A stretch of 64,000 nucleotides of DNA. Origin: a virus. The notes beneath the pieces were generated by a model, which was given only the letters and a program-made list of their open reading frames with translations, had not been told where the DNA came from and did no database searches. Shown one piece after another: positions 1 through 21,813 of this stretch (position 1 is its first letter; each line of letters begins with the position of its first letter). Both the position numbers and the translations under genes were made by a program. The stretch covers positions 5,058 to 69,057 of the IMG/VR virus record IMGVR_UViG_3300009152_000004. The stretch is one strand, 5' to 3'.

Positions 1-2
1 TG

Positions 3-1231: not shown

Positions 1232-1268
1232 CCCATACGGAGCTTCGGCCCCGGTTTTTGGAGGCGAC

Positions 1269-1361: not shown

Positions 1362-1371
1362 AGGAGAAGTG

Positions 1372-1635: not shown

Positions 1636-1636
1636 G

Positions 1637-3347: not shown

Positions 3348-3353
3348 CTCCCC

Positions 3354-3530
3354 ATGAAACACCGCACGAAGAAGCACGCGCAGCCTGAATTTAAAAACAA
3401 TAGAGAGCAAATGAAGCTCAATATGGCCGCGCGGAAACGCCTTGAAGAAATACGAGACGAGGAAGACGAAGATGAAATCGAACAAGCTGCAAGGCGATAC
3501 GAGCGAGACCCAGACCCCGGCGGAGATTAA
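3354..3530 (+). CDS. hypothetical charged protein (MKHRTKK...)
   Basis: Translated by hand, 58 aa. Confidence 0.4.
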   Translation: MKHRTKKHAQPEFKNNREQMKLNMAARKRLEEIRDEEDEDEIEQAARRYERDPDPGGD

Positions 3531-3747
3531 AGCCCTCTTGAAGCTGAGTGGGGTGGAAGTGGTTGAAACTCTGTTTGAAGCATATGGCGGCGAACACGAC
3601 AAGTCACTCCACGATAACTACGGGCCGACCTATTGGCGGGTGATGGTGAGGCCATACAGTGGTGGTAAAGCCTTCCGATCCGCCCAACGGGACACCGCAT
3701 GGCAACAGGTATGGGAGTGGTACAAACGTGGAGAGGATTTAAAATGA
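3472..3747 (+). CDS. small protein of the E..AL.KL.G paralogue family
   Basis: TPAEIKALLKLSGV; start uncertain. Confidence 0.6.
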   Translation: MKSNKLQGDTSETQTPAEIKALLKLSGVEVVETLFEAYGGEHDKSLHDNYGPTYWRVMVRPYSGGKAFRSAQRDTAWQQVWEWYKRGEDLK

Positions 3748-3953
3748 CCGAAGAAGAATTGAAGGCCCTGTTGTTGGTGGAGGGGTTTGAGCTACATGTA
3801 TACCCAACAGCTACAGACCCGGACGCGTTGTGGATGGTTGATTTTAATGACATGCACGGTCGCCGCAAAATCCCGGCGAACTCCACAAACAACACACGCG
3901 AAGAAGCCGTGCAGCAGGCGGTTGGTTACTACAAACTGGGCCCCCTACGATGA
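3744..3953 (+). CDS. small protein of the E..AL.KL.G paralogue family
   Basis: MTEEELKALLLVEGF...NTREEAVQQA. Confidence 0.65.
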   Translation: MTEEELKALLLVEGFELHVYPTATDPDALWMVDFNDMHGRRKIPANSTNNTREEAVQQAVGYYKLGPLR

Positions 3954-5821: not shown

Positions 5822-5823
5822 AC

Positions 5824-6135
5824 ATGGATTATTCGGAATTGTGGCTACGCAGCAAAACGGCGTTACGGGCTATGGATGACGCCATCCTCACGGGAGAGTA
5901 TGATCGCGCTGAGAAGATCGCTGATGAACTTGTGGTTGAAATCAGACTCTTACGAAACGCTGTCATTCTTGAACGAGAGAGGAAATGCCCCGATGAGCAT
6001 AAAATGGTCGTACAGCAGTCTGTCTCTGTTCCAGCAGTGCCCGAAGAAATACCACCGGTTGCGAGTGGTGAAGGACATCAAGGAGCCCCCGTCGGAGCAG
6101 ATGCGGTACGGTTTGGACGCCCACAAAGCGGCTGA
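5824..6135 (+). CDS. hypothetical helical protein, 3' end overlapping the next gene
   Basis: MDYSELWL...; starts right after the polA stop. Confidence 0.5.
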   Translation: MDYSELWLRSKTALRAMDDAILTGEYDRAEKIADELVVEIRLLRNAVILERERKCPDEHKMVVQQSVSVPAVPEEIPPVASGEGHQGAPVGADAVRFGRPQSG

Positions 6136-6655
6136 AGAATATGTACGTGACGGCACTCCACTACCCGCTGGGTTTGCATTTTTACAACCGGTATTAGACA
6201 AACTGAAGGCCCTGCCGGGAGAGAAATTGTGCGAGTTCAAGCTGGGGTTGACTGAGGAGTTGGAGCCGTGTGACTTTTTTGCCGAGAACGTATGGTGGCG
6301 CGGCATCGCAGACTTGTTGATTATCGATGGGGATACGGCCCGGGTGTTGGACTACAAAACGGGCAAAGACAAGTATGCGGACAAGAAGCAGTTGGAGTTG
6401 CTGTCGTTGGCGGTGTTCAAGCACTTCCCGCATGTGAAGAAGGTAAAGGCGGGTCTATTGTTTGTGATCCACACCAACTTCATCAAAGAAGATTACCCAC
6501 GCGAAAAAGAAGCAGCGATGTGGGCGAAGTGGTTGCCGGAGACAGATCGACTGGAGACGGCGTATGAGGATGATGTGTGGAACCCGAAGCCAAACTTTAC
6601 TTGTCGGGCGTGGTGCCCGGTGATGGACTGCCCACATAACGGGAAAACGAGATAG
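5993..6655 (+). CDS. Cas4/RecB-like PD-(D/E)XK exonuclease
   Basis: WSYSSLSLFQQCP, GIADLL, DYKTG, QLELL, C-terminal CxWCxxxxC Fe-S cluster motif. Confidence 0.9.
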   Translation: MSIKWSYSSLSLFQQCPKKYHRLRVVKDIKEPPSEQMRYGLDAHKAAEEYVRDGTPLPAGFAFLQPVLDKLKALPGEKLCEFKLGLTEELEPCDFFAENVWWRGIADLLIIDGDTARVLDYKTGKDKYADKKQLELLSLAVFKHFPHVKKVKAGLLFVIHTNFIKEDYPREKEAAMWAKWLPETDRLETAYEDDVWNPKPNFTCRAWCPVMDCPHNGKTR

Positions 6656-6663
6656 GAGTTGAC

Positions 6664-6951
6664 ATGCCCTACGTAAACAAAAAACGCCCTTATGGGCGGG
6701 AATACGCCCAATATCAAGGCACTCCTGAGCAGATCAGAAACCGCGCCAAGCGCAACAAGGCCCGTGCTGAGATGATGAAAAAAGGCAAGGTGCACAAGGG
6801 TGATGGCATGGACGTTGATCATACAGTGCCAATCAGCAAAGGCGGCGGGAACTCTTCCAGCAATCTGCGTGTCAGAACAGACAATGAGAACCGCAGCTTT
6901 AGCCGCAACAGTGATCGGTCAGTGAAGCGGAACTCCCCGAAGAAAAAGTAA
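6664..6951 (+). CDS. HNH endonuclease
   Basis: DVDHTVPISKGGGN..SNLRV....NR. Confidence 0.85.
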   Translation: MPYVNKKRPYGREYAQYQGTPEQIRNRAKRNKARAEMMKKGKVHKGDGMDVDHTVPISKGGGNSSSNLRVRTDNENRSFSRNSDRSVKRNSPKKK

Positions 6952-6959
6952 CCGAATGA

Positions 6960-6988
6960 TTGACCCCGGACGGGCCGGGGTGTAGGAT
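6960..6988 (+). promoter_or_regulatory. sigma70-like promoter of the helicase operon
   Basis: TTGACC-17 bp-TAGGAT in the intergenic gap. Confidence 0.55.
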
Positions 6989-7047
6989 GGTGGAAATAAC
7001 GGGTGGGCGCAAAAGACGCTTTCACCCGATAACCTTTTGGAGAGACG

Positions 7048-8604
7048 GTGGAAATAGTCGGCAACAAGGCACTTCGTATCCGTGTCCGCAACCCGAAGCG
7101 GATCACAAATGTCATCCCGAAAAGCGCGATGATCGACGACCACGAAGTGCTAGTGAAGTGGGGGCTGGACGAATGTCAGGTGTTGAAAAACCTTGGCGTC
7201 AAGAACATCCCGTCACCAATCACCAAAGACTATAAATGGCCGGGGCTGTTTCAACCGTTTGACCACCAGCGCACTACCGCTGAATTCCTGACACTCAACC
7301 GCCGTGGGTTTTGTTTCAACGAGCAAGGCACTGGTAAAACCGCCAGCGTGATCTGGGCGGCTGACTACCTCATGAACATCGGGAAAGTGCGCAGGGTGCT
7401 GGTGCTGTGCCCGCTGTCGATCATGGGCTCTGCGTGGCAGAATGATCTGTTCAGGTTTGCAATGCACAGAACCACAGCCATTGCCCACAACCGTGACGGA
7501 CGCAAGCGTAAGGAAGTTATCGACAGTGATGCTGAGTTTGTGATCATCAACTACGATGGGTTGGAGATTGTGTCCCCGGACGTGATCGCGGACGGTCGGT
7601 TTGACCTCATTGTTGTTGATGAAGCCAACGCATACAAGAACCCGACTACCAAGCGTTGGAAGACCCTGAACAAGATCATCCGGCCCGATACATGGCTGTG
7701 GATGCTTACAGGAACCCCGGCGTCACAGGCCCCCACCGATGCGTATGGTCTGGCGAAGCTGGTCAACCCCGGGGGTGTACCGAAGTTTGCGGGGGCGTTC
7801 CGTGATCTGGTGATGAACAAGATTACGCAGTTCAAGTGGACTCCCAAGATGGACGCTGTGGAGACCGTGCACAGGGTGCTGCAGCCTGCGATACGCTTTA
7901 CAAAAGAGCAGTGTTTGGACTTGCCCGACATGATGTATGTGATGCGGGATGTGCCCCTGTCAAAGCAGCAGGAAAAGTATTATAAACAAATGCGCACGGA
8001 GATGTTGACGGTGGCGGCGGGTGAAGAGATCAGCGCCGTGAATGCCGCAGCAAAGTTGACTAAATTACTACAGATATCATGTGGTGCGGTATACGCCGAC
8101 AGTAAAGAGATTGTGGACTTCGACTGCAAAGGCCGCATGGATGTTTTGAAAGAAATCATTGACGAGTCGAGTCATAAGGTTTTAATATTCGCTCCATACC
8201 GCCATAGCATCTACGCAATTGCAGCAGAACTAAAGCACTGCGGTTACACACTGGATGTGATCGACGGCGGTGTGCCCCCGAATAGACGCACTGAAATATT
8301 CAACAAGTTTCAGACAACCGATGAACCACGCATTCTGGTGATTCAACCACAGGCAGCTTCGCATGGCGTTACGCTGCACGCAGCAAACACAGTTGTGTAT
8401 TGGTCGCCAGTTATGTCCGTAGAAACGTATCTTCAAGCGAACGCCCGGGTGCATCGGGCGGGCCAGAAAAATAAAGTCACCATCATGCACCTGCAGGGAA
8501 GTCCTGTTGAACGCAAGCTGTATAAAATGTTGAGTGGCAAAGTGGACATCCACGAAAAATTAGTTGATCTATATAAAGAGGAATTAGGAGAAAGCAATGA
8601 CTGA
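7048..8604 (+). CDS. SNF2-family SF2 helicase
   Basis: EQGTGKT, VVDEA, LTGTP, HGVTL, QANARVHRAGQ. Confidence 0.93.
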   Translation: MEIVGNKALRIRVRNPKRITNVIPKSAMIDDHEVLVKWGLDECQVLKNLGVKNIPSPITKDYKWPGLFQPFDHQRTTAEFLTLNRRGFCFNEQGTGKTASVIWAADYLMNIGKVRRVLVLCPLSIMGSAWQNDLFRFAMHRTTAIAHNRDGRKRKEVIDSDAEFVIINYDGLEIVSPDVIADGRFDLIVVDEANAYKNPTTKRWKTLNKIIRPDTWLWMLTGTPASQAPTDAYGLAKLVNPGGVPKFAGAFRDLVMNKITQFKWTPKMDAVETVHRVLQPAIRFTKEQCLDLPDMMYVMRDVPLSKQQEKYYKQMRTEMLTVAAGEEISAVNAAAKLTKLLQISCGAVYADSKEIVDFDCKGRMDVLKEIIDESSHKVLIFAPYRHSIYAIAAELKHCGYTLDVIDGGVPPNRRTEIFNKFQTTDEPRILVIQPQAASHGVTLHAANTVVYWSPVMSVETYLQANARVHRAGQKNKVTIMHLQGSPVERKLYKMLSGKVDIHEKLVDLYKEELGESND

Positions 8605-9019
8605 TGCAGTAACACAAGCACGGGAGCCTTCTGTCCCCGTGGACAAACTGATGAAGATTTTTATCAAAATTCGTGACTCAAGGGAGGCGCTATCGCGTAA
8701 ATACGAGGAAGATGATGGGTTGCTGAAAGACCAGCAGGAAGTGATCAAGACACAGATTCTGGAAGTATGTAAGGAGTTGAATCTGGATAGCCTCAAGACC
8801 ACCGCAGGCACCGCTACCCGCTCGGTCAAAACACGCTACTGGTCTTCGGACTGGGGCGCGTTGCATGAGTTTGTCAAGGAGCATGACGCGATGGACCTGA
8901 TGGAACGGCGCGTGCACCAGACGAATATGAAGCAGTTTCTGGCGGAGAACCCTGATGTCCGTATCCCGGGCCTCAACTCTGACAGCTACTACGACATTAC
9001 TGTTCGACGCAGCAAATAA
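8597..9019 (+). CDS. conserved phage replication-module protein (coiled coil plus small beta domain)
   Basis: AGGAG RBS, located between the helicase and SSB-like genes. Confidence 0.7.
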   Translation: MTDAVTQAREPSVPVDKLMKIFIKIRDSREALSRKYEEDDGLLKDQQEVIKTQILEVCKELNLDSLKTTAGTATRSVKTRYWSSDWGALHEFVKEHDAMDLMERRVHQTNMKQFLAENPDVRIPGLNSDSYYDITVRRSK

Positions 9020-9033
9020 ACAAGGAGAAGTGA

Positions 9034-9933
9034 ATGACTACTGAAATGACGCTGTTTAAAGATGGTGCGGTTCCCTCGTATTTGAAGGGCCGTGAAATGG
9101 ACGCGGTGACCAAAGCCCTGATGGGTGGCGGCGCTACGACCAAACGTATCTCGATCAAAGGTGGTGTATGGCGGCTGATGTCTGGCGGCAAAGAGATCGC
9201 GGTGAACGAAGACCGGGCCATGAATGTGGTTGTGGTTGAAGCCGCTGCGAAAGTCTCGCGCGCGTTCTATGAAGGCACCTACGATCCGGACGCGGAGAAA
9301 GCCCCCTCCCCCACCTGCTGGTCTGCTGATGGTGATCGCCCGGATAAGTCGGTAGAGACCCCGCAAGGTGCGTCGTGCGCAGACTGCCCCAAGAACGTCA
9401 AGGGTTCCGGTCAAGGTGAGTCGCGTGCATGTCGCTTCTCGCGTCGTCTGGCGGTGGTGCTGGAGAACGATCTGAGTGGTGACGTGTATCAACTCACGCT
9501 GCCGTCGCAATCGATCTTCGGCAAGACCGAGAATGGCAAGATGCCGCTCAACGCCTACGCACAGTATCTGGCGGGCTTCAATGTGCCAATCACTGCGGTG
9601 GTTACGGAGATGCGGTTCGACACCAACAGCGCTACGCCGAAGCTGACGTTCAAAGCCGTGCGCCCGTTGACGGAAGCCGAGTTCCACCAGTGTGAAGCCC
9701 AAGGCAAGACCCCCGCAGCCAAGAGCGCGATCACTATGACTGTCGCGCAAGCGGATGGTGTGCAGAAGCTGGAGAACAAGACCGAAGCCCCGAAGGTGGC
9801 GGATGTGGTAGATAAGCAGCAGGAAGCCGCTGCACCCGGAGAAGAAGCCCCAAAGAAACGCGAGTCCACAAAGGCCGCTCCTCCGGAGCCGAAGAAGAGC
9901 CTGCAGTCTGTTATTGATCAGTGGGACGACTAA
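9034..9933 (+). CDS. putative single-stranded DNA-binding protein
   Basis: CWS..G..PD, CxxCP.N..GS, RACR motifs; acidic/aromatic C-terminus IDQWDD; replication-module context. Confidence 0.65.
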   Translation: MTTEMTLFKDGAVPSYLKGREMDAVTKALMGGGATTKRISIKGGVWRLMSGGKEIAVNEDRAMNVVVVEAAAKVSRAFYEGTYDPDAEKAPSPTCWSADGDRPDKSVETPQGASCADCPKNVKGSGQGESRACRFSRRLAVVLENDLSGDVYQLTLPSQSIFGKTENGKMPLNAYAQYLAGFNVPITAVVTEMRFDTNSATPKLTFKAVRPLTEAEFHQCEAQGKTPAAKSAITMTVAQADGVQKLENKTEAPKVADVVDKQQEAAAPGEEAPKKRESTKAAPPEPKKSLQSVIDQWDD

Positions 9934-9948
9934 GTTCGGTGGTGGTTC

Positions 9949-9978
9949 GGGCGGGGTCGCTCCCCGCCCTTTTTCTTT
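9949..9978 (+). terminator. intrinsic terminator
   Basis: GGGCGGGG-tcgct-CCCCGCCC followed by a T tract. Confidence 0.8.
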
Positions 9979-10019
9979 GGAGGTATCATGCAAGACCCCA
10001 CGAATGAAGGCATAACCCA

Positions 10020-12863
10020 ATGTCCACACGAAACGAGTTCCTGAATGCGGTGCTGCCGCCTGATGGTGTCTACGTTGCGGTGTCTATCGACGACAATAAA
10101 AAAGTATCGCAGACATTTCACAATTCGGTCGCTGAACTTAATGAGCAACTGGAAACTATCACGCAGCAAAACAAGAACGCATTTTTCGCAACAGCCGCAT
10201 ACAACATCGAGACCACACGCACCAATGACAATGTAAAACATATCCGCTCGTTCTTCATGGACCTTGACTGCGATCCGGAAGACGACACCAAATTCCCCGA
10301 CCAGAATACTGCTCTGGCGGAACTGAAAGCGTTTGTTCAAGACCTGCGCCTACCGAAACCCACTGTGGTTAACTCGGGACGCGGGATACACGCATACTGG
10401 CCGTTGCTGGAGCCGGTGGACCGCGTGAAGTGGAAGCCCGTTGCGGAGAAGCTGAAGCAGACCTGCATGTTCAAGGGCTTCCGTATTGACCCGGCGGTCA
10501 CCGCCGATGCTGCGCGTATTTTGAGGGCACCCGGCACCCGCAACCATAAAGACCCGTCCAACCCGCTTGATGTGGAAGTGATGCGGGTGGGGGAGCCGGT
10601 TGCGTTCGACGATATGCGCAAGTTGTTGGGCGTGTCGGAGTTTGATCTGTTACCGGCAACAAAGCGCCCGATGGACGAGGTATCCAAGAAGCTGTTGGCG
10701 AACCGTCCGTCTGTATTCAAGAACATCCTGCAGAAAAGCGCGGCGGGGGAAGGCTGCGCCCACATTCTATACGCGGTTACACATCAAGCGGATATATCAG
10801 AACCCCATTGGCGGGCGGTGCTGTCGATTGCGGCCCACTGTGCGGACAAAGACAAGGCCATACACAAGGTCTCCAGTGCCCACCCGGACTACAACCCCGC
10901 AGATACAGAGCGTAAGGCTGGGTCGATCCGTGGTCCATATACCTGCGCCACCTTCCAAAACATCGACGCCACGCTTTGCGAGGGGTGCCCGCACTTTGGT
11001 AAAATAGCATCACCAATAGCCTTGGGCGCTGGTCGCGTACTGGAAGCCACGAAGGAAGATAACGTGGTCGAAGTGCCCGCAGTCGGTGATGAACCTGCGG
11101 TGGTGTATGAGATTCCGGAGTATCCGTTCCCGTTTTTCAGGGGCAAGAACGGCGGGGTGTATGTCCGGGACAAGCGGGAAGACAAGAGCGGTAACACGGT
11201 CGAAGAAGACAAGCTGATCTACGAGTATGACTTCTATGCCGTGAACCTGATCGAAGACCCGTATCTGGGCATGACGGCTCTGTTCCGAGTGCATTTCCCA
11301 CAGGATGGGGTCAAGGAGTTCTGCGTGCCAGTGAAGGACATGCTGGCTAAAGACCGCTATCGGGATGTGTTGGGGATGAAGGGTATTTGCCCGTCAAATA
11401 GTCAATTGGAGAACATAATGGCGTATTCGAACCATTGGGTTCGGCACCATCAGAAGTTGCGCAAGGCTAGTTTAGGGCGCGTCCAATTTGGGTGGGCCGA
11501 CAGCAACTCCTGCTTTATTGTGGGGGATCGGGAAATCTCGTCCGCTGGCATCACCTACAGCCCACCCACGGCCAATACCGTAGACATCATCCCCAAGTTT
11601 CGCAAGGCCGGGACGCTCGACGCGTGGAAGCAAGTCACCAAGTTCTATGCCAGACCGGGGCAGGAACTGCCCCTGTTCGCGCTGTTTGCGGGCTTCGCTG
11701 CTCCCCTGATGCCATTCACCGGTACGCGTGGTGGTGTGATCAGCCTGTATTCGAATAAGGGCGGCACCGGCAAGACGACCACCCTGCAGGCCATCAACAG
11801 CATATTCGGACACCCAGATGAGGCGATGCTGATCAAGACCGACACCGTAAACTCCCGGGTCAACCGGGTAGGCACCATGAACAATATCGCGGCTACAACT
11901 GACGAGATCACCAACGAGACCCCAGAAGCCCTGTCAGAATACATCTACTCTATGCTGCATGGCCGTGGCAAGAACCGACTGATGGGTAGCCAGAACATAG
12001 AGCGCATCAACAAGACGACGTGGAACACGATCAGCATCGTTACCGGCAACTCAACCATTTCGGACAAGTTGTATACCATTAAATCACTACCGGACGGTGA
12101 GTTGCGTCGACTGATGGAGTTCCCGTTCCCCACACAGGTCAACATCTCCAAGGGTGAGTCGGACGCCATTTTCCGGCCCCTGCAGGACAACTACGGCCAC
12201 GCTGGAGAGGTGTATATACAATACATCCTGAACAACATGGGGCGGGTGGGCGACCTGCTGCTCAAGGTGCAGGGGAAAATCGACAAGGCTGCGGAACTCA
12301 CCCAGCGAGAGCAATACTGGTCAGCGACTACAGCGGCGTGTATCTCGGGGGGTATTCTGGCGAAAGAGTCCGGGGCGCTGGACATCACCGACGACGACAT
12401 CAAGCGGGTGTATGACTGGATTATCAATCAACTGAAGGTCATGCGTGGGCATGTGGCGATTGCGAATATCGAACCGGATGAAGTGCTGGGTATGTTTCTG
12501 TCCGAACACATCAACGATATGCTGATCATCAACGCCAGCGTGAAAGGCGGACTAAATGAGGGCCCGATCCGCGAGCCGAAAGGGAAGTTGTTGATCCGCT
12601 ACGAGCCCGACACCAAAGACTTGATGATCAGTGTAGCGAAGTTTCGGGAATTTTGCACTAAGCGCCAGATGTCCTACAGCCACACCATCAAGGCACTACA
12701 GGCTGCGGGCGCACTGCATGGTGAGACGCGGAAGCGGTTGGGTAAGGGCACCCACATTTCGGTCAATGAACGGGTGTTGGTGTTTCGGAACGTAAACGAG
12801 AAATTTGTTTTGGGAGAGGTCGATGTGGACGCATGGTTTGCGAGTCAGGATAAACTGGCATGA
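10020..12863 (+). CDS. primase-helicase (RepB-like AEP primase, PriCT, DUF927, P-loop NTPase)
   Basis: DLD motif, NSGRGIHAYW, RILRAPGT, Walker A GGTGKTT, TTDE. Confidence 0.88.
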   Translation: MSTRNEFLNAVLPPDGVYVAVSIDDNKKVSQTFHNSVAELNEQLETITQQNKNAFFATAAYNIETTRTNDNVKHIRSFFMDLDCDPEDDTKFPDQNTALAELKAFVQDLRLPKPTVVNSGRGIHAYWPLLEPVDRVKWKPVAEKLKQTCMFKGFRIDPAVTADAARILRAPGTRNHKDPSNPLDVEVMRVGEPVAFDDMRKLLGVSEFDLLPATKRPMDEVSKKLLANRPSVFKNILQKSAAGEGCAHILYAVTHQADISEPHWRAVLSIAAHCADKDKAIHKVSSAHPDYNPADTERKAGSIRGPYTCATFQNIDATLCEGCPHFGKIASPIALGAGRVLEATKEDNVVEVPAVGDEPAVVYEIPEYPFPFFRGKNGGVYVRDKREDKSGNTVEEDKLIYEYDFYAVNLIEDPYLGMTALFRVHFPQDGVKEFCVPVKDMLAKDRYRDVLGMKGICPSNSQLENIMAYSNHWVRHHQKLRKASLGRVQFGWADSNSCFIVGDREISSAGITYSPPTANTVDIIPKFRKAGTLDAWKQVTKFYARPGQELPLFALFAGFAAPLMPFTGTRGGVISLYSNKGGTGKTTTLQAINSIFGHPDEAMLIKTDTVNSRVNRVGTMNNIAATTDEITNETPEALSEYIYSMLHGRGKNRLMGSQNIERINKTTWNTISIVTGNSTISDKLYTIKSLPDGELRRLMEFPFPTQVNISKGESDAIFRPLQDNYGHAGEVYIQYILNNMGRVGDLLLKVQGKIDKAAELTQREQYWSATTAACISGGILAKESGALDITDDDIKRVYDWIINQLKVMRGHVAIANIEPDEVLGMFLSEHINDMLIINASVKGGLNEGPIREPKGKLLIRYEPDTKDLMISVAKFREFCTKRQMSYSHTIKALQAAGALHGETRKRLGKGTHISVNERVLVFRNVNEKFVLGEVDVDAWFASQDKLA

Positions 12864-13020
12864 TTTCCCCGTCAGTGCGTCCGCGTTTGTGCCGGGGGTC
12901 GAGACGCGGTTGCTGCGCAACGATATTCAGAAGGAAGCCGACGCACTAGGTGTTGTGGTGTTGCTGGAAGAGGTCGCGGAGTTCGGGTATATGGGTGTCC
13001 GTGTTTGGCGAATTGGATAA
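12823..13020 (+). CDS. hypothetical protein (GVRVWR C-terminus)
   Basis: GGGAG RBS, overlaps the primase end. Confidence 0.6.
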   Translation: MWTHGLRVRINWHDFPVSASAFVPGVETRLLRNDIQKEADALGVVVLLEEVAEFGYMGVRVWRIG

Positions 13021-13031
13021 AGGAAAAAGAA

Positions 13032-13343
13032 ATGAATGACTTGGAAATGATTAAGAAGTGCGCGGAGAAGATGGGTTTTGTTCTGACGTTACTACCCCCT
13101 GATATGCGCCGTACTGACGGAGTGGTTGAGTTGGCGATAGCCACAGAAACTGCTTGGGGTATGAATCACACGATCTACAATCCCTTCTGTGACGACGCGC
13201 AAGCAATGGCGCTGGTGAAGAAGTTTAAGCTGACAATTTCAACTGGTCTGGATGGTTGGAGTGCAAACTATGCCGCGACAGGATGGGTTTCAAACCAAGA
13301 CCTAAACCGCGCCATCTGCGAATGTGTGGCGAAACTACCCTGA
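13032..13343 (+). CDS. NinX/DUF2591-like phage protein
   Basis: YNPFCDDAQAMALVKKF...LNRAICEC pattern. Confidence 0.6.
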   Translation: MNDLEMIKKCAEKMGFVLTLLPPDMRRTDGVVELAIATETAWGMNHTIYNPFCDDAQAMALVKKFKLTISTGLDGWSANYAATGWVSNQDLNRAICECVAKLP

Positions 13344-13347
13344 CCCC

Positions 13348-13376
13348 TTGCACCACCCGTTTTTCTGTGCCACTAT
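13348..13376 (+). promoter_or_regulatory. sigma70-like promoter of the putative sRNA
   Basis: TTGCAC-17 bp-CACTAT with TG extended -10. Confidence 0.55.
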
Positions 13377-13381
13377 CCGCC

Positions 13382-13452
13382 CGACGCTGGACTCTCTCCC
13401 CAGTCGTCGCTTCTCCTCCTCGTTTACCCCCGGCTTCGGCTGGGGGTTTTTT
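13382..13452 (+). ncRNA. putative ~70-nt anti-Shine-Dalgarno small RNA
   Basis: Hairpin CGACGCTGG/CCAGTCGTCG with ACTCTCTCC loop, linker CTTCTCCTCCTCGTTTA, terminator; no ORF. Confidence 0.55.
13427..13452 (+). terminator. intrinsic terminator at the convergence of the replication and late modules
   Basis: CCCCCGGC-TTCG-GCTGGGGG-TTTTTT. Confidence 0.85.
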
Positions 13453-13453
13453 C

Positions 13454-16400
13454 TTACTCTTCCCCTTCAGCAGCCTTACGCACCCGCTCTTTGAGTTTCG
13501 GGTCGATCTGTACCCCATAGATAGCCTGCTGCTCCCTGCGATCACGTCCTTTGACTGAAGCAATGATGTCCTTGGGTTTGATCGCCACCTCGGGGAACGC
13601 CATATTGAACGCTGCAATGCGCTCCTGCACACCCATCAGGGCATCCACATCCCCAGCATCCGCTGCGGTCTCATACTGATCAAACAGGCGGCGTTTACGG
13701 TCACGCACGAACGTCTCCATCTCCTTCATGTAACCGCGTTTCTCGTAAATCTCAGTCAGCTTGGTCGGCGCAAACCCACCCAACTGGAACATTGCGTTCA
13801 TGATATTGATGTCGTCCGTGATTGGATCACCCTTCAAAGTCGTGGCACCCTCCACCCCAAACCGCATGGCCTTCAAACCGTTACGCAGTGCGGCGGGAGC
13901 ACCGGCTTCAATCCCACGATACCAATACCCGTCGTCGATCATCTGCGCAGCCCGGTTCATGTTGGTCAGGATGCTGAACGGTGCCCCCAAGAATATCTGC
14001 TCGATGTAGTAGCGCAGTGCCCCAAGTTCGGCTTTACTGCGGGAGTCGTCCCGGATCAGCAGGTCACCAAAACCCGTACGTTGTGCGACCTCAAGACCGG
14101 TTAGGTAGTTGGTCGGGCCCTTGAACGTGAACTCACCCAGCGCGTTGCGCATGGTGTTGCGGAAGTCCGGATACTCATCGTCATCCCCGAACGCCGACTG
14201 AAACACGTTGTAGAGGAACTCCCCCACCCCCACGAACGGCAGGCCCTGTGCACCGGCAAACGCAAACGTCATGGCATACGTCCCCAGCAACTGCTTCCGG
14301 GCGATGTTCTTGGCTAACTCCCGTTCTTGCGGTGACAGACTGCTATCCCCTTTGATCGCTACATACGCCATACGCGCAGTACGGAACATCATCAGTTGAG
14401 CGAAGCGTTTGAAGATCAACACAACACGACCCAGTGGGTGCTGGAATATCGGCCCCGCAGTCTCCATCATGCCGCTGCCGTGGGACTTGGTGATCATGTC
14501 GACGGCTTCATTCACGGCTTCGGTCTCAGACAAACCTTTTTGTTTTGCCAGCGTGTAGGCGGCGATTGCGGTGATCTCACGGTTTGCCATCTCTGAATGC
14601 TGGTAGGCGAACGTCATGGCGATACTGGCGGCGCGTTTGACCTTGCTGTCCGGAGACGACGGCTGTGACCGCATGTCCAGAATCTCCTGCGAGATCGAGA
14701 TGTTGATCTGACCACGGCGCTGCAGTTCGTCATACAGGCCACGCAACGGGCTGTCTTTTGGCAGGGTGTTCAGAGGTGACAGGTAACCAAATTTCTTGAA
14801 GTTGTCCCCGGCGTTTTTATATACTGATTTGCCATACGCCTTGTATGCACCCATCAGGGCCGCAGTCGCTTTACCCGCGCCATACTTACTTGCCATCATG
14901 GGGTAGGCGATCATCGGGGTCTGCGTCAAGTTGATCAGAGCGGTGGATACGTTGGCCCCGAGGAAGTACGAGAACGTCAGCCAGTTGATGTTCGACGCCA
15001 GCTTGTTGATCGTCGGATTCAGCATTGTGGTGAGGCGCGACCCCGGCTCCGCCGAAATTTGTGTGGCTACTTCGTCGGCTAGTGGGTCAAACCCACGCGG
15101 GTCTTTGCTGGATATGTCCGCCAACTCATTACGGCCCAGCGCAGCGGTCTCTTCAATCCGACGGTTATACAGACGTGATGCCGTCTGTGAAATGAGCTTC
15201 GGGGCGGTAGCAGTGTAGCTACGCAGCACGTCTTTCTCAAAACCAGCACGACCTTCCCGCTTGATCATATTCATGATTGCCGACTGCTGCGGATTCAACC
15301 GAAGCAGGGCTTTATATACATCGTTCACCACATCATCAGCCACACCGTTGTCGCGCATAGCCCGCAGAGTACGTTGGATCATGGGGTCAGACGGCGGGGT
15401 GCGGCCAGCGATAACCTCATCCAGATTCTTGTATTGCTTGAAATCCTTGCTGTTACGGTCGATCTTGTTCTCAGCGATAAACCGATTGCGCTGCTCCGGG
15501 GTTTCAAACGCCATAACAATCTGCTCACCGTTCTTCTCAAACCGCATCCAGTAATCGCCAAACCGCATCAGCGGGAAGTAGGGCTTGATCTTGCTCTCGA
15601 TACCTGCCTTGATCTCATCGATCTCATTCTTGGGCAGCACGGCCAAGTCTTTCTCCAGCGCGGCGATGTAGTCCTTGTACAGCTTCTCGTAGTGCTCCTT
15701 GATCTCGGTGTAGGACTTCTTCAGGTCATCCGGCAGCGCCTTATAACGCGCCAACAGGTCCGGGCCTTGTTTGGCGGCGGGGTTACCACTGTTCTTCGGG
15801 TCGGCGGGATCAAACCGGGCCAACGTAGCGTCGTACACCACTTCGGTGAACTTGTCGTATTCTTTTTTGAGCGCCGTCGTCTGGCTGTATTTGTTCACCA
15901 CTCGCTGCAATGACTTGGCGGTCTGACCTGCGCGGTCGATCTGGGTGTTCTCATAACCCCGGCGTTCGTTGAGTAGGTCTACAACCCCCCGCAGTGCAGG
16001 TGCCCGGTTGCCATAAATCTCCACCAGATGATTCAGGTCCAACGTCTTCACCGCAGCACCCAGCACGCCACGGCTCATCTTGCCAACGACGTCGCTCCAT
16101 GCTCCGGAAAACTTAGGTAGGTTTGTGGAACTATCACCCATCGTGTTGAGCATGTTTCTGTAGGCGGCGGAAGCACCCGATACATCAGCATTGAGAAACA
16201 GAATGTCCCCGGGCGTTTTGGGGATCGTCTTACCAGCACGGATAATCTTGCCAATAATCTCGTCGATACGGTCCAACGCGGTGTTCGAACTGCGCGGCGA
16301 CATACCAAAGAACTTACGCACAGCGTTCACAAACCAGTCATACGCGGTCTTCAACGCACCTTGCGGAATGCGAATGCTGCGCAGCATCTGTTGGAACTCA

Positions 16401-19400
16401 GAGTTGGACTGGGCTTCTGCGGCGAACTCCTGCAAGCTGGTCGCGCCATACTGCCCCTCTATACGCGGACGTATCCGGGTGAACAACTCATTCAGTTGAC
16501 GAGTCAGCGGGTGCATCCGGCTACGCAGAACATGGGAGATCGCGGCATGGGTAGTTTCATGCAGGATGGTGTGTTCGTGCAGTGAGTCCGGGCTGATCGT
16601 GATGGTGTCGGTGGTTGGGTCGTACTGGCCTGCGCCTTCCACCATGCCTACCTTGATTCGTGTGTTGCCGATACGAGCGAGCAGCCGCTGTGCCACCTGT
16701 TTCAACAACGGATTGTTGGTGGACTGAATAATGCCCCGCAGCGTCTTCCGCAGATCACCCGCCTGAACTGCCGCAGCTACATCATCCTGCACTTTCACAC
16801 CGACGGGTTTAGACGGCAGTAGCAGATCATCTTCCGCGTTCTCGTCATCTACTTGCTGCTGTACAGCGCGAGCGTTTTTCCGGTTGGCTTCATAGCGTTC
16901 TTGGATCGCAGCGGATGCAGCGAGTTTCTGTTTGGCGGCGTCGATATCCTGTTGGGGGACTTCATTGCGCTCCAGAATGCTTCGGGCAGTCGACACCACG
17001 GCCTTGTTCTGATCCCGCATACTGTCCACCAGATACAGGACCGCACTGTTGTATTTGGAGGTCACTTTGGTGGTCTGGATCAACCGTTCGGCTTCCTGCA
17101 GTTCGAAAAGTTCTTCCGCGAAGTTCGTGCGCTCACCGCGCTTGGGTTTCTGTGACGGCGGGGTTAGTGGAGAAGACTGTTGCGTCGTTGCTCCATCACT
17201 TCGTCCAGCATCTCTTTGATCGCCATCCACGTCGGCAGGTCGAGTAACGTCAGCGGCCCCTCCTCCGGTGGTTCGTCCTTGTACAGGCACAGCCATGCCT
17301 GCGCTATCAGCTTCTCGTCCAGCATTGGGTGTCCCTTCAAAGTCAAATGCTCCTTGTACCCGTGGCATTGATTTACGTGGACGGCCACGGAGCACGGGTT
17401 CTGCGGCAGGTTCTTGGGTGGGCTCAGGTTGCACGGCGGGCGCTTGCGTCCCACGACGGCGTTTTTCACGGCCCTGCTGAATAGCCAGAGTCAGTCCCGG
17501 TGTCTTGCGTTCCTGCGCCTGCGCTACCTCCAGTTCGGCGGTCGTCTGCGGTTGTTGCTGCTTGAGCAGGTATTCTTGGCGCGGGGTCAGCGGCATCCCG
17601 GCATCCCGACGTTGCTTGGCGAACTCCAGTTCCTGAACGTCCGTATTTTGGGCGGCGGGCGTCTCACCCAGCACCTGTCCTTGGGTCATGCGGCCCTTGG
17701 TGGCGATCTGTTGCTCACGCGCTTTGTCAATCAGGTTCGACGCTACTTCAGGGTTGAACTTTACGCGACCGCTAATGTCACCCAGCACCCCTTCAAACTT
17801 GTTGAGATCATCGGCTCTGGTCAGGTCGAGCCCACGCAAGGTGTCTCTGGCTTTCTTCGAAGTGCGACTGAACCCAAGACCTGTCAATACGTCGTCGGTG
17901 ATCTGCATCCCGACCGGTGTAGGTACTTCGGGAGCAGCGGGATATTGCAGCGGCTCTGGGGTGGGCGCGGGGCGTTCTTGTAGTTGCGGTTGTACCTCAG
18001 CCATCTGCTTCATGGACTGGCGACGGGTCGGCTCTTTCTCTGGATTCGTCGGGTTGATTTGTTTATTGAGTGTATTTATCTGCGCACGAGTGCTGGCTAT
18101 GGCGCTCTTGATCTGCTCCTGCTGCTCAATGAACTTTACTTTTTCGCCCGGGGTCTTAGCACGTTGGACTTCCCGATCCAGAATATCCAATACCCGGCGT
18201 TGCTCCTCCAACTGGGTTTGCAGGGCCGTAATTTCTTCCGTTGGGTCTTGGTTGAACCTTTCAGCGGTTAGCTTGTCACCACCGGGTGTATATGCAAACA
18301 GATCAGGTACGGCGTCCGGTGGCGGGGCCTGTTCACGATCCATCATCTCCTGTTGCGCAGTATTGGGTACGGGCTTACCTTCCGGTCCCATACCGGTGAA
18401 TACTTCTGACCGGGGGGCGTTCTCCGCCTCCGCCAACAACTGCTTGCGCTGCGTATCTTCTATAGCCGCCCGACGACCCAGTTCCTCTTGCGCATTACCA
18501 CGACCTGCACGGGCCGCGCCCACTTGACCCACTGCACCCAACGGACCACCCAGCATCAAGGCACCAGCAGCGGCTTCAGCGTATTCTTTGGCGGCTTCAG
18601 GGTCGTCATAGGGGTTCGTCGCCAGACCCGCCTGCCAACGCTCCAGCACTTGCTGCGACACCTCCTGCGGGATTTCAAAGGCGATACCCTTCATCACCCC
18701 CTTGGCGATCTCCTGCTTATATTTGACCGGGTTGGCAGCGGCGAGCGCGAGTTCTTTCACGGTCTGGTCGGCAACGGCCTTACCCTCAATACCCAGCAGC
18801 TTACCCAATCCCAAAAACTTGCCGCCCAATAGGTCGAGCGCGGCCTGACCACCACCCGCTACCGTAGCAGGGAGTCGATCTACCGGCTTACCTTTATTCT
18901 CTTCGACTTGGCGACCGAGGTTGCTGGCGATGTACTGCCCCAGCAAAGTCAACCCATACGCACCCGTGCCGATCAACGCAGCCGGGGCACCTGCAACCGC
19001 AGCGGCACCTGCACCCAACAGACCGGCGGCAGCGGCTGGGGCTTGGAAACCAATCGATTCACCCGACAGTTCACGGAACTTATCCCACGTAGCGCCTAAC
19101 GCCCCGCCGATATCCCCAGCCTTCGCACGGGCTCCGATGTCACTGAACTGCGTGCGGCGATAGGCGTCCTGTGCCTCTTTCTGAACTTGCTGCATCTGCT
19201 GCGCAGCTTGCTCATCTCCCGGGTTTACCATGAGTTTGGCAGCGGGGGCCAAGGACTTGAGTGTCGACGACGCACCGGTACCCAGCGCTTTAAAGAAACC
19301 CGGCTCTTCCGGGATAGGGTCGAACTTCGGCTCGGCGGCGTATTTCTGGTATCGGCGGATAAGTTCCGATTGTGTAATATCGTCCGGCACCCCGGAGATG

Positions 19401-19429
19401 ACGGTACCATCTGGCATTCTTACATCCAT
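13454..19429 (-). CDS. large polyvalent-type internal virion/ejection protein with zincin metallopeptidase domain
   Basis: 1991 aa, last late gene; GQYDP..DTITI...LHETTHAA...EFAAE (HExxH plus downstream E). Confidence 0.75.
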   Translation of the reverse strand: MDVRMPDGTVISGVPDDITQSELIRRYQKYAAEPKFDPIPEEPGFFKALGTGASSTLKSLAPAAKLMVNPGDEQAAQQMQQVQKEAQDAYRRTQFSDIGARAKAGDIGGALGATWDKFRELSGESIGFQAPAAAAGLLGAGAAAVAGAPAALIGTGAYGLTLLGQYIASNLGRQVEENKGKPVDRLPATVAGGGQAALDLLGGKFLGLGKLLGIEGKAVADQTVKELALAAANPVKYKQEIAKGVMKGIAFEIPQEVSQQVLERWQAGLATNPYDDPEAAKEYAEAAAGALMLGGPLGAVGQVGAARAGRGNAQEELGRRAAIEDTQRKQLLAEAENAPRSEVFTGMGPEGKPVPNTAQQEMMDREQAPPPDAVPDLFAYTPGGDKLTAERFNQDPTEEITALQTQLEEQRRVLDILDREVQRAKTPGEKVKFIEQQEQIKSAIASTRAQINTLNKQINPTNPEKEPTRRQSMKQMAEVQPQLQERPAPTPEPLQYPAAPEVPTPVGMQITDDVLTGLGFSRTSKKARDTLRGLDLTRADDLNKFEGVLGDISGRVKFNPEVASNLIDKAREQQIATKGRMTQGQVLGETPAAQNTDVQELEFAKQRRDAGMPLTPRQEYLLKQQQPQTTAELEVAQAQERKTPGLTLAIQQGREKRRRGTQAPAVQPEPTQEPAAEPVLRGRPRKSMPRVQGAFDFEGTPNAGREADSAGMAVPVQGRTTGGGAADVTRPADVDGDQRDAGRSDGATTQQSSPLTPPSQKPKRGERTNFAEELFELQEAERLIQTTKVTSKYNSAVLYLVDSMRDQNKAVVSTARSILERNEVPQQDIDAAKQKLAASAAIQERYEANRKNARAVQQQVDDENAEDDLLLPSKPVGVKVQDDVAAAVQAGDLRKTLRGIIQSTNNPLLKQVAQRLLARIGNTRIKVGMVEGAGQYDPTTDTITISPDSLHEHTILHETTHAAISHVLRSRMHPLTRQLNELFTRIRPRIEGQYGATSLQEFAAEAQSNSEFQQMLRSIRIPQGALKTAYDWFVNAVRKFFGMSPRSSNTALDRIDEIIGKIIRAGKTIPKTPGDILFLNADVSGASAAYRNMLNTMGDSSTNLPKFSGAWSDVVGKMSRGVLGAAVKTLDLNHLVEIYGNRAPALRGVVDLLNERRGYENTQIDRAGQTAKSLQRVVNKYSQTTALKKEYDKFTEVVYDATLARFDPADPKNSGNPAAKQGPDLLARYKALPDDLKKSYTEIKEHYEKLYKDYIAALEKDLAVLPKNEIDEIKAGIESKIKPYFPLMRFGDYWMRFEKNGEQIVMAFETPEQRNRFIAENKIDRNSKDFKQYKNLDEVIAGRTPPSDPMIQRTLRAMRDNGVADDVVNDVYKALLRLNPQQSAIMNMIKREGRAGFEKDVLRSYTATAPKLISQTASRLYNRRIEETAALGRNELADISSKDPRGFDPLADEVATQISAEPGSRLTTMLNPTINKLASNINWLTFSYFLGANVSTALINLTQTPMIAYPMMASKYGAGKATAALMGAYKAYGKSVYKNAGDNFKKFGYLSPLNTLPKDSPLRGLYDELQRRGQINISISQEILDMRSQPSSPDSKVKRAASIAMTFAYQHSEMANREITAIAAYTLAKQKGLSETEAVNEAVDMITKSHGSGMMETAGPIFQHPLGRVVLIFKRFAQLMMFRTARMAYVAIKGDSSLSPQERELAKNIARKQLLGTYAMTFAFAGAQGLPFVGVGEFLYNVFQSAFGDDDEYPDFRNTMRNALGEFTFKGPTNYLTGLEVAQRTGFGDLLIRDDSRSKAELGALRYYIEQIFLGAPFSILTNMNRAAQMIDDGYWYRGIEAGAPAALRNGLKAMRFGVEGATTLKGDPITDDINIMNAMFQLGGFAPTKLTEIYEKRGYMKEMETFVRDRKRRLFDQYETAADAGDVDALMGVQERIAAFNMAFPEVAIKPKDIIASVKGRDRREQQAIYGVQIDPKLKERVRKAAEGEE

Positions 19430-19437
19430 CAGAACTC

Positions 19438-21813
19438 CTAGTTGGGTAGATCAGCGAAATTTACCACGTCTGTTTTCCCGCCGGTGTCACCCGAAGGTAC
19501 CGCACCCGCCATTGCTTTGGCGGTTTCTGACTGGATCAGTTTACCGATATTATCCAACTGTACCTGTTCTTCAGGTTTGATTTTACCAGCAGCGGCCTTT
19601 TGTTGCAGCGCCGTATACATTGGGTACCGATCACGTACTTTGTCTTGGATCGCAGCCAGAACCCGGGCGCGTTTGGTATCAGCATCCTGCTGGCGCACGT
19701 AGTTCAGTGAATCGCGTTGGGTTCTATTACCTTCTGCCACGGCAGCGGTGCGACGATCTTCAGCGCCGATCTTAGCCACGGTCTCAAAGCGCTTCTCACC
19801 CAGTTCAGCAACCTTGAGTTCAGTGGTAGCGATGGCTTTGTTGTAGGCGTCACGGGCGGTACGAACACGATCCCCCGCAGCGATAGCGTCCTTCTCAATA
19901 CCCATGCGCTCTGCACGATCCAGACGTTTCTCTGCCAGCACCAGCTTATTGCGCTCACGTTCCGCGTTGCGGAAATCTTTATTGATTGAGCCCAGTTCCT
20001 TCGTCGTGAGGCCGAGACCTTCCGCAAAGTTCTTCAGCATGTATGGAGAAGTGCCCGCAGCCGCCGCGAACCCACCCATAGCCACGGCCAGCCAGCGGTC
20101 TTTATCACGATCTTGCACGGCGGTCTTGGCTTCTTCTTTGAACATGTCGAGCCGCTCTTTGATATCGTCCGGGATTTCTTTGCGCAATGCGTCCCTACGG
20201 GCAGTGGTTGCGTCTTCGGCGGTACCCAGATTATCTCGCTCAGTTTGCAGGGACTTGGTGATGCTGGACAGATCGGGGCCTTTGGCACTTAGTTGGGGTG
20301 CTCTTACTGTGCTAGCAGCTTGTGCTGTGGGTGCGGGTTGTGGGGTTGGCGCGATTTGCGGCGTCGTTGGCTTGGCATAAACAGTCGGTTCCGGTTCGTT
20401 GGCTGAGAATGCCGCGATGCCGCCCGGAGCTACCGGCGCTTGTTGTGCTTGCGCACGTTGTTCTGCGATGGCCTGTAGACGTTTAGCGCGTTCCTCTTCC
20501 GCTGGCGTGGCGTAAGTGCGAGGACGGTTGTATGCGTCCTTAAAGAACTTGGCAATACCACCCAACATACCTACACCACCACCATCATCAAACGCGACGA
20601 TCCCACCACCTGCGTAGTCGGCGCTTTCCATAACACCAGTGTCCATACCGGCGATACCACCCAGCACAGTACCTTGGGGCTCACCGGCTTGCAGGGCTTG
20701 GTAGTTCTGGCTGCTCTGGCGCATCTGTTGCACCTTCTGCGTAGCCATCATTTTCTCAAGCGGTGTGGCATTGGCCTGCGAGATAACCTGCTGCGGGTTC
20801 GGGCTGGACAGCGCCACTTTGATCAGCTTTGACACATTCGATGCCAGACCACCCTCACTACCGACTTCACCGCCGATAGCAAACTTCTTGACCGCGCCAC
20901 CCTCTTTAAATGCTTTTGACAGACCCAGTGCACCGAGACCTAAACCGCCGATTTGAGACGCGATGTTTGGCTGCTGCTGGTAGGAGTACATGGTCTGATT
21001 GGGGGACACTACAGAGCCGCGCAAGAGGGAACTCAGGTTCTGCAATTGCGTCCACGGATATTGCTGCTGGCGCATGAACTCTTCGTACTTCTGATCGATA
21101 CCTTGTTGCGCCTGCGCTTGTTGAATACCGCCAGCCTGCTGCTGCGCTTGATTGATACCCATCTGTTGGTTGTATGAACTCTGACCCAGTTGGCCCAACG
21201 TGCCAGCAGCTTGACCTGCCGTCTGGAGACCCTGAAGCCCCGCCGTGGTACCGAACTGCAACGACTTCTGTGCTTGGTCAAATGCGTTCTGAGTGCCGGT
21301 TGCTTGGATACCCGCCAGTTGGTTCTGCAGGTTACGGTTGGCTTCCGATTCTACGAGCGCATGGCGAGTGCCACCAAACGCACCGGCCTTTGACGCACCA
21401 GCGCCAATACTCGGGAGCCCACGGTTGTAGTCCTGAACCGCTTGGTTTTTCTGCCAGTCGACCACGTTCTGCATATACGGCGACATGTATGACTGCATGG
21501 CTTGCGGTGAGGTGGCTTGTTGCATGTAGTTGTTGCCAGCATTGAGCCCGCCGATGCCAGCCATACCCGCCATACCAGCACCCTGCCCCATTAGGGGTGA
21601 CACGCCCATGTTACCAACATTTTCAAATGCCTGATTCTGCAAGCCGGTAAAATCCGCAACGCGCTGACCGGTGTAGGGTTGGTACGAAGTTTGAGACGCG
21701 GCTTGACCGCGATTCATTATGTCTTCGAAATATGGCCGAGCGTATTCAGGAATGTTTGAGGTCGTTTGCTGTACAGTGCTAGGCTGTTGTGGTGCGCTTG
21801 ATCCCTTACCCAT
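19438..21813 (-). CDS. internal virion (DNA ejection/pilot) protein
   Basis: Gln/Gly/Ala-rich, GAFGGTR motif, coiled coils; probable start MGKGSS. Confidence 0.7.
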   Translation of the reverse strand: MGKGSSAPQQPSTVQQTTSNIPEYARPYFEDIMNRGQAASQTSYQPYTGQRVADFTGLQNQAFENVGNMGVSPLMGQGAGMAGMAGIGGLNAGNNYMQQATSPQAMQSYMSPYMQNVVDWQKNQAVQDYNRGLPSIGAGASKAGAFGGTRHALVESEANRNLQNQLAGIQATGTQNAFDQAQKSLQFGTTAGLQGLQTAGQAAGTLGQLGQSSYNQQMGINQAQQQAGGIQQAQAQQGIDQKYEEFMRQQQYPWTQLQNLSSLLRGSVVSPNQTMYSYQQQPNIASQIGGLGLGALGLSKAFKEGGAVKKFAIGGEVGSEGGLASNVSKLIKVALSSPNPQQVISQANATPLEKMMATQKVQQMRQSSQNYQALQAGEPQGTVLGGIAGMDTGVMESADYAGGGIVAFDDGGGVGMLGGIAKFFKDAYNRPRTYATPAEEERAKRLQAIAEQRAQAQQAPVAPGGIAAFSANEPEPTVYAKPTTPQIAPTPQPAPTAQAASTVRAPQLSAKGPDLSSITKSLQTERDNLGTAEDATTARRDALRKEIPDDIKERLDMFKEEAKTAVQDRDKDRWLAVAMGGFAAAAGTSPYMLKNFAEGLGLTTKELGSINKDFRNAERERNKLVLAEKRLDRAERMGIEKDAIAAGDRVRTARDAYNKAIATTELKVAELGEKRFETVAKIGAEDRRTAAVAEGNRTQRDSLNYVRQQDADTKRARVLAAIQDKVRDRYPMYTALQQKAAAGKIKPEEQVQLDNIGKLIQSETAKAMAGAVPSGDTGGKTDVVNFADLPN

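Follow-up and report, generated by a model that had tools for sequence, protein, structure and literature searches.

The window analysed here is a stretch of 64,000 nucleotides (nt) of phage DNA, bases 5058-69057 of virus record IMGVR_UViG_3300009152_000004, which is 69,057 bases long and carries direct terminal repeats at its ends. Rightward genes occupy positions 1-13343 and about 53.4-64 kb of the window; the rightward block encodes a family A DNA polymerase, a PD-(D/E)XK nuclease, an SNF2 helicase and a DUF927 primase (10020-12863). The leftward virion genes, among them those for the terminase, the portal and a 1991-amino-acid (aa) LPD39/DarB-like protein, run from 13454 to about 53.2 kb. 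At the junction of these convergent blocks lies a gap of 110 bases, in which a compact element, present as a single copy in the 69-kb phage record, closes the rightward (replication) block as its last gene (Table 1). Judged from its sequence, the gap appears on balance to encode, on its + strand, a non-coding RNA some 70 nt long, with an exposed seed of the anti-Shine-Dalgarno (anti-SD) type that would pair with the Shine-Dalgarno (SD) regions of messages.

The + strand of the element folded at -33.4 kcal/mol (z -3.71), a value equalled by none of 200 shuffled sequences, whereas the - strand gave a z of -1.40 that 22 of 200 shuffles equalled; the structure was significant on the + strand only in this shuffle test of both strands. 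The fold comprises a hairpin, an unpaired linker rich in C and U (CU-rich; CTTCTCCTCCTCGTTTA) and a terminator with a UUCG loop, just as an initial annotation made from the letters of the window had claimed. The strings quoted there were likewise all found in place, namely the promoter hexamers, the hairpin, the linker, the terminator, TAAACGACAGGAGAAG at 861-876, TAAACAAGGAGAAG at 9017-9030 and AGGAGAAG at 1362 and 56848, together with ribosome-binding sites (RBSs) of the GGAGAG type near 3730, 12813, 56297, 57889, 58459, 60015 and 62063. The terminator was found by a consensus scan as well (nine pairs, seven of them GC), in agreement with the fold, and a Rho-independent terminator with a U tail is what is expected of a trans-acting small RNA (sRNA).

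An exact search of the viral collection with the 17-nt linker returned 24 stretches, 21 of which were reverse complements of genuine RBS-ATG sites in unrelated phages; the linker is therefore the mirror image of a strong RBS. One of the 24, locus L056, proved to be a homologue of the whole element. Two further exact-pattern scans were carried out: the second scan returned 58 stretches, only L056 being related, and the third returned L056 only. Relatives were also sought with the C-terminal part of the 1991-aa protein, and none of the four pattern matches obtained in this way was confirmed.

A search with two aligned primases gathered 80 loci. The primase was 58-61% identical to that of the window in 11 of them, and all 11 have the element, at an identity of 87-96%. 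When the window was compared with L056 and L139, the flanking genes showed 67-74% DNA identity and the primase 60% protein identity; the element itself was 86.8% identical over 91 nt and 96% over a 55-nt core, and the DNA on either side of it was unalignable. On these alignments, the element is an island of conservation, far above its flanks. Its core GCUUCUCCU (linker with G13409, that is, G-CUUCUCCU) was invariant in nine of nine sequences (columns G65-T73 of alignment A3). The differences among the relatives 3' of the -10 box were confined to the hairpin loop, the bulge, the terminator loop, the 3' part of the linker, wobbles and one compensatory pair. This distribution does not favour two further proposals of the initial annotation, which had treated the linker arm UCGUUUA as functional and the hairpin loop as a second pairing arm. 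The 3' part of the linker reads TCGTTTA, GTTTA, CTTTTA, CCTTCA or CATA in different relatives, and the loop CUCUCUCC is specific to the window, with UUCCUCC or CCUCG in its place elsewhere.

The pairing was analyzed on an alignment of seven sequences (A4). All nine pairs of hairpin 1 were kept in all seven, three of which have AU for GC at one pair, both sides having changed, and all eight pairs of the terminator were kept, with a change from GC to GU in two. In total 119 of 119 cells were paired, against 31-55% when the partners were slid. Furthermore, the G.U wobbles found at three pairs, two of them in hairpin 1, are compatible only with an RNA of the + strand. A form of the RNA without the 5' hairpin was observed in L141 (8017-8067) and L142 (7634-7684), where only an unpaired CU-rich stretch of about 23 nt, GCUUCUUCCUCCC, separates the -10 box from the terminator.

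Upstream of the hairpin, the TG-n-CACTAT of the window aligns with TG(C/G)-TA(G/T)TAT in eight relatives (A3), and a -10 box at a fixed distance is conserved among them. In these relatives the last codons of a conserved small open reading frame (ORF) read TTGGCG, and 17 bases further on stands TA(G/T)TAT, preceded by TG-n. The promoter tool reported TTGGCG-17-TATTAT with its TG as the sole site in 600 nt of L139, and likewise of L133, as against 0.1 and 0.3 sites in shuffled sequences. Both promoters match the consensus at 9 of 12 positions, with TG, and are better than that of the window, where TTGCAC-17-CACTAT agrees at 6 of 12, plus a TG one base before the second hexamer. Since the promoter of the window is weak, the putative discrete transcript may here also arise partly as the 3' end of an upstream message.

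A covariance model, R1, was built on the close family and recovered 11 of 11 close relatives with 53-103 bits. Weaker matches on the + strand were obtained in distant relatives (primase identity of about 40-53%), in 43 of the 84 distinct loci with enough sequence downstream of the primase, and all of these lay 133-255 nt past the primase end. All 53 syntenic matches of R1 were on the + strand; of the two matches on the - strand, that in L139 was a fragment of a terminator and that in L217 was not syntenic. Because R1 itself favours CU-rich linkers, the test was repeated by synteny alone. A terminator was then found 130-420 nt past the primase, after the small ORF, in 77 of the 84 loci, and a canonical anti-SD 5-mer lay within 50 nt before it in 68 of these 77, compared with 12.8% among 5000 randomly chosen windows and with 3 of 30 terminator-like sites other than these. 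The pyrimidine content was also higher in the syntenic elements than in the controls (61% vs 48%), and TGnTAnnnT occurred upstream of 24 of the 77, against 7.3% of controls. The mean unpaired probability was 0.73 for the anti-SD motif and 0.53 for the rest of the RNA body, the former being biased upward by the use of the best motif per RNA. In a subclade of 34 distinct sequences the arrangement consisted of a TAGTAT(T/C)AT box, a hairpin GUAG..CUAC with covarying arms, UUUCCUU, a spacer and the terminator. The sequence outside the motif was often unalignable among related loci. The element is best regarded as a small RNA gene whose seed of the anti-SD type is exposed, from a new family that marks, across a large clade of uncultured phages, where the replication block ends.

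With regard to possible targets, the RBS variant used most often by the rightward genes, AGGAGAAG(C), has its complement in the invariant core GCUUCUCCU. AGGAGAAG occurs six times in the window: four occurrences serve as RBSs of ORFs on the + strand (Table 1), a fifth is the complement of the element itself and the sixth is intragenic. All 10 of the 10 close relatives have it before their homologue of ORF 9034, and L141 does too. G001, a 43-kb relative, has it 12 times; in seven cases an ATG follows on the + strand, and in six of these seven the ORF is 153 codons or longer. GGAG followed by AAG, the most frequent form of the rightward candidate RBSs, was found at 6 of 42 rightward and 0 of 34 leftward candidate RBSs of the window (p 0.024) and at 7 of 44 and 0 of 15, respectively, in G001 (p 0.11). 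The bias was not upheld in G004 (rightward 4 of 27, leftward 2 of 7); pooled over the three genomes, it gave p 0.019. The number of start-region sites pairing with the linker at -14 kcal/mol or better was 30, against 20.7 in shuffles, a borderline excess that 5% of the shuffles reach. Taken on sequence grounds, the RNA most likely masks SD regions, and the targets that fit best are the phage's own rightward genes with an RBS of the AGGAGAAG class. As a separate observation, AGGAGAAG was missing among the leftward (virion) candidate RBSs of the window and of G001. A genome-wide duplex scan with a 23-nt seed was also tried and was set aside, its output being dominated by G.U-rich chance sites and the element's own antisense.

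The initial annotation had seen a trans-acting anti-SD sRNA in this gap and had named a particular target, the RBS of the gene at 881, to be clamped by a duplex of 8+7 base pairs (bp). The general part is in keeping with a self-contained, conserved unit whose core is complementary to AGGAGAAG; the choice of 881 is not supported. The duplex with 861-876 does exist and ranks high among the start regions (Table 1), yet it was no better than those formed by 300 shuffled linkers. The labels given to the genes at 881 ('HTH-like', helix-turn-helix) and 9034 ('SSB-like', single-stranded DNA-binding) were found to be unsupported, since neither protein has a Pfam family and the 9034 protein falls into a PHROG of unknown function.

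Several observations weigh against an RNA that acts in trans on chosen messages. A promoter scan reported five promoter-like sites over 8000-20000 and the window's own promoter, a poor match at 6 of 12 positions, was not among them; taken by itself, this promoter does not exceed chance. At the level of the clade, 41 of the 84 loci had no R1 match at E<=1, although by eye most of these 41 share the same layout. The canonical anti-SD 5-mer was lacking in 9 of the 77 syntenic elements, and the unpaired probability of the motif reached 0.7 or more in only 39 of 69. RNAalifold, applied to a MAFFT alignment of the TAGTAT subclade, recovered the terminator only, because the hairpin varies in length and could not be aligned by MAFFT. 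The related loci are moreover kin, and the counts are therefore not independent events.

Complementarity, too, was unspecific. In a test of 111 heuristic start regions against 300 shuffled linkers, the best site of the linker had -20.8 kcal/mol, compared with -20.9 +/- 2.0 for the shuffles, 46% of which were equal or better, and its mean pairing was matched by 26% of the shuffles. The mean pairing was stronger with rightward start regions, but this preference was shared by a generic anti-SD 9-mer used as a control and is hence not specific. No covariation of seed and target was seen: the RBS of the 9034 homologue stays AGGAGAAG where the seed is UUUCCUU, a seed that could still pair with it through wobble, and within the close family there was no informative variation of seed or target at this homologue. 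Finally, the pairing of seeds with their own RBSs was stronger than with those of other loci (-16.3 vs -14.8, permutation p 0.002, 29 pairs), a difference that is confounded by relatedness.

Other explanations of the element were weighed beside an anti-SD RNA. It might only be the 3' end of the rightward operon, a one-way terminator with a stabilising hairpin, kept by recombination at the block junction and without any function in trans. Its exact position at the convergent junction, 2 nt from the opposing stop codon, would suit such an origin, as would the weak promoter of the window and the lack of a target better than chance. The late-block sequences beyond the element differ between relatives that share it, which points to a mosaic junction. 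Nevertheless, the terminator after the 9034 homologue diverges freely, whereas the linker core here is invariant; the anti-SD motif is kept amid unalignable sequence (68 of 77, as against 3 of 30 at other terminators), and the -10 box is held at its distance. A plain operon end is, in our judgement, unlikely. The RNA could also be a genuine sRNA that binds a protein instead of mRNA, either Hfq or ribosomal protein S1, as a sponge, or the 65-aa protein encoded upstream. An unpaired pyrimidine tract with a U-tailed terminator is the usual layout for Hfq binding, and the RNA comes directly downstream of the 65-aa ORF in every case (80 distinct ORFs). The conserved motif is, however, specifically of the anti-SD type and more than just U-rich, and the confident model of the 65-aa protein has no match in the PDB at E<=0.001, so that protein binding seems improbable as the explanation.

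Phage lambda encodes OOP, a short RNA that has a promoter and a terminator to itself and lies against an oppositely transcribed gene. In the manner of OOP on cII, the element might pair with late read-through transcripts of the 1991-aa gene and trigger their cleavage. Because UAAAC, and no U-run, comes after the terminator hairpin on the - strand, late transcripts are likely to run on into the element. OOP extends into the coding region of cII at its 3' end, whereas the RNA here stops 2 nt before the opposing stop codon and has no overlap with the coding part (13452 vs 13454-13456); besides, antisense action would not require the anti-SD motif found throughout the clade, and we regard it as quite improbable. 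The two-armed repressor of the initial annotation, with the linker clamping the 881 RBS (8+7 bp around a 2x1 loop) and the loop CUCUCUCC directed at the GGAGAG-type RBSs for early shut-off or immunity, has its strings in place and the rank of the 881 leader in its favour (third of 113, -20.5 kcal/mol). It is very improbable in view of the shuffled linkers of which 46% do as well or better, the unconserved arm UCGUUUA and the loop that differs in relatives; gene 881, in addition, had no homologue in any of five related records searched, all partial (25-66% complete). Nor is an immunity role favoured, as none of 30 scanned proteins matched an integrase or repressor family, no lysogeny genes being seen among them, and the record ends in direct terminal repeats. 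It could lastly be supposed that the - strand is the functional one and that the element is a relic or live RBS (TAAACGAGGAGGAGAAG) for a small ORF on that strand, in line with 21 of the 24 exact viral matches, where the 17-mer, read as its reverse complement, forms a genuine RBS before an ATG. That is hardly credible here, for there is no ATG, GTG or TTG at a usable distance on the - strand, relatives differ by indels of 1 and 3 nt, the wobbles fit the + strand only and so do the 53 of 53 syntenic model matches.

The RNA was compared with known families. A scan of the window at Rfam gathering scores gave no match. At relaxed thresholds the best match was RF02278 (Betaproteobacteria toxic small RNA), with 23.6 bits and E 0.006 for a 201-nt search. 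In relatives the same family scored 27.1 bits (L139) and 37.0 bits (L152, E 8e-4), the alignment in the latter taking in the CU stretch at the 5' end, the hairpin with the CU loop and the terminator. Every phage score was below the gathering cut-off of 50 bits for RF02278, which makes this a resemblance and not membership. One Undibacterium genome carried four true chromosomal copies of RF02278, with 50.3-60.4 bits. The family differs from the phage RNA in having several chromosomal copies (in the one bacterial genome checked) where the phage has one, and in the order of the parts: in the family an unpaired CU-rich stretch at the 5' end precedes the hairpin with its CU-rich loop and the terminator, whereas the window has hairpin, linker, terminator, of which only the linker and the terminator are aligned. 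Among 151 sampled Burkholderiales genomes, including the unpublished genome G032, no close counterpart of the phage RNA was detected (best score 28.9 bits); 45 of the 151 gave matches at E<=0.01, whose sequences were heterogeneous and which were treated as non-specific for that reason. Named members of RF02278 are ncS03, ncS05, ncS27 and ncS62 (bdhR) of Burkholderia, and S17S of Bordetella and the NmsRs of Neisseria are related. These double-hairpin RNAs of about 57-92 nt are described as having CU-rich stretches, both single-stranded and in a hairpin loop, that are unpaired and complementary to RBSs, and a Rho-independent terminator (PMC5688073; bioRxiv 10.1101/2024.11.19.624354). Overexpression of ncS27 slows growth (PMC5688073), and two C/U-rich sites of S17S are predicted to block ribosome binding (bioRxiv 10.1101/2024.11.19.624354). 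The phage RNA shares with this kind its shortness, the unpaired CU-rich stretches complementary to RBSs and the Rho-independent terminator at its end.

Masking of SD sequences by unpaired pyrimidine motifs, with a C-rich or CU-rich seed, is also known for sRNAs of the RsaE/RoxS type in Firmicutes; these are host-encoded and regulated by host signals, and have no sequence or Rfam relation to the phage RNA. Among phage RNAs, c4 of P1/P7 has exposed complementary stretches, likely loops, that pair around the RBS of a message and block its translation (PMC12197685). The target of c4 is a single specific message from the immunity region to which c4 itself belongs, whereas the complementarity here is generic, of the anti-SD type, and singles out no one target; the c4 family was not among the 13 Rfam matches listed at E<=10 for 13300-13500. 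The impression given by the same review (PMC12197685) is that the phage sRNAs described so far come mostly from prophages and temperate phages. No phage-encoded sRNA of the anti-SD or RF02278 type appeared among the papers listed by literature searches, which did not extend to the review's supplementary tables, said to contain 38 uncharacterised phage sRNAs.

The coordinates of the element, of its candidate targets and of the adjoining genes are collected in Table 1.

Table 1. Features of the element, AGGAGAAG sites before rightward ORFs and neighbouring genes in the window.
Feature	Position	Strand	Remarks
-35-like hexamer TTGCAC	13348-13353	+	3/6 to TTGACA; TTGGCG in relatives, at the same distance from the -10 box
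Extended -10-like box TG-n-CACTAT	13368-13376	+	TG 13368-13369, CACTAT 13371-13376; 17-nt spacer from TTGCAC
Hairpin 1	13382-13409	+	9 bp, one bulged T; loop ACTCTCTCC (DNA), ACUCUCUCC (RNA), 13391-13399; minimum free energy (MFE) fold
CU-rich linker (candidate seed) CTTCTCCTCCTCGTTTA	13410-13426	+	17 nt; unpaired in MFE and centroid folds
Intrinsic terminator	13426-13452	+	Stem 13426-13434/13439-13447, loop UUCG, six T 13447-13452 (the first T closes the stem)
AGGAGAAG, RBS of ORF 881-1231	869-876	+	Linker duplex -20.5 kcal/mol, rank 3/113 start regions
AGGAGAAG, RBS of ORF 1372-1635	1362-1369	+	Duplex -20.8 kcal/mol, rank 2/113
AGGAGAAG, RBS of ORF 9034-9933 (phrog_27714, function unknown)	9023-9030	+	Full-linker duplex -14.8 kcal/mol, rank 25/113
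AGGAGAAG, RBS of ORF 56860-57189	56848-56855	+	Duplex -19.3 kcal/mol, rank 6/113
Conserved 65-aa ORF, ending ..GVRVWRIG	12823-13020	+	80 distinct homologues in related loci; alignment A6
103-aa ORF	13032-13343	+	This genome only; between the small ORF and the RNA gene
Convergent 1991-aa gene	13454-19429	-	LPD39 domain (PF18858); C-terminal part matches DarB-like antirestriction PHROGs

In relatives the RNA lies directly 3' of the homologue of the small ORF. The 65-aa protein family (..SFFIPCLD..GLRVWR) was seen to be very well conserved and to stand always just before the RNA. No Pfam or PHROG family was found for it. The AlphaFold model was confident (mean predicted local distance difference test, pLDDT, 91.6) and showed a small beta-alpha-beta-beta fold; a Foldseek search of the PDB gave no match at E<=0.001, so no RNA-binding fold could be assigned. 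The 103-aa ORF is absent from L139, L056 and other close relatives, is flanked by an 11-nt direct repeat TGT(T/G)TGGCGAA (13002-13012 and 13323-13333), gave a weak match to phrog_5086 (function unknown) and has the look of a moron that was inserted recently. On the other side of the gap, the 1991-aa gene is followed by one for an 801-aa protein of the DNA-ejection type, which makes the 1991-aa protein a likely injected polyvalent protein.

No close DNA relative was found among deposited phages by blastn. The nearest cultured phage by primase was Pseudomonas phage Rollin (29.8% identity), which has no gap at the corresponding junction and hence no counterpart of the element. Assignment of a host was attempted through six genome loci, which belonged to Nanopelagicales, Parvibaculum, an alphaproteobacterial metagenome-assembled genome, Undibacterium, Binatia and Dehalococcoidia, a mixture of taxa that gave no answer. 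A search for tRNA genes found none. Elsewhere in the window, the early region holds a MoxR-type AAA ATPase (AAA_5) gene adjoining one for a DUF2201 metallopeptidase-like/VWA protein (60026-61117 and 62074-63258), and two related HNH endonuclease genes were seen at 51940-52443 (-) and 63267-63749 (+), one of them beside the terminase genes. Near the primase gene, which lacks a clear SD, a second terminator on the + strand lies at 9949-9969, between the 9034 gene and the primase. In L163 an RNA resembling the Rfam int-alpA family (33.0 bits, cut-off 35.8) precedes the primase at 4919-4988, and nothing comparable was found in the window at 9880-10080.

An anti-SD RNA of this kind would work through its exposed core GCUUCUCCU, which would base-pair with SD regions, and best with those of the AGGAGAAG(C) class. 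Pairing of the core with the SD would keep 30S subunits off these messages, and accumulation of the RNA would turn down the translation of early and middle phage genes and possibly of host messages. A comparable shut-off is known from T4, where RegB, a nuclease, and RegA, a repressor, are proteins that end translation of early messages through their SD regions; the agent proposed here is an RNA, with the same proposed outcome. A more far-reaching version of the proposal can be put forward only tentatively, and with some doubt. In it, a clade of apparently virulent phages would carry a global anti-SD riboregulator, related to or mimicking the CU-rich double-hairpin sRNAs of their hosts, that silences early and middle messages of the AGGAGAAG class, and perhaps host messages, and so turns ribosomes over to the late genes, as an RNA counterpart of T4 RegA/RegB.

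A small RNA gene is proposed that keeps the same position throughout some 77 distinct related loci, where only the mirror image of an RBS is preserved while the rest drifts. It offers a simple object for testing: an RNA of 70 nt, a seed of 9 nt and a defined class of RBSs. Should it be related to the betaproteobacterial 'toxic' sRNAs, these phages would be carrying a global regulator of host type. If the proposed action is true, RNA-based control of translation would be a regular part of a lytic programme.

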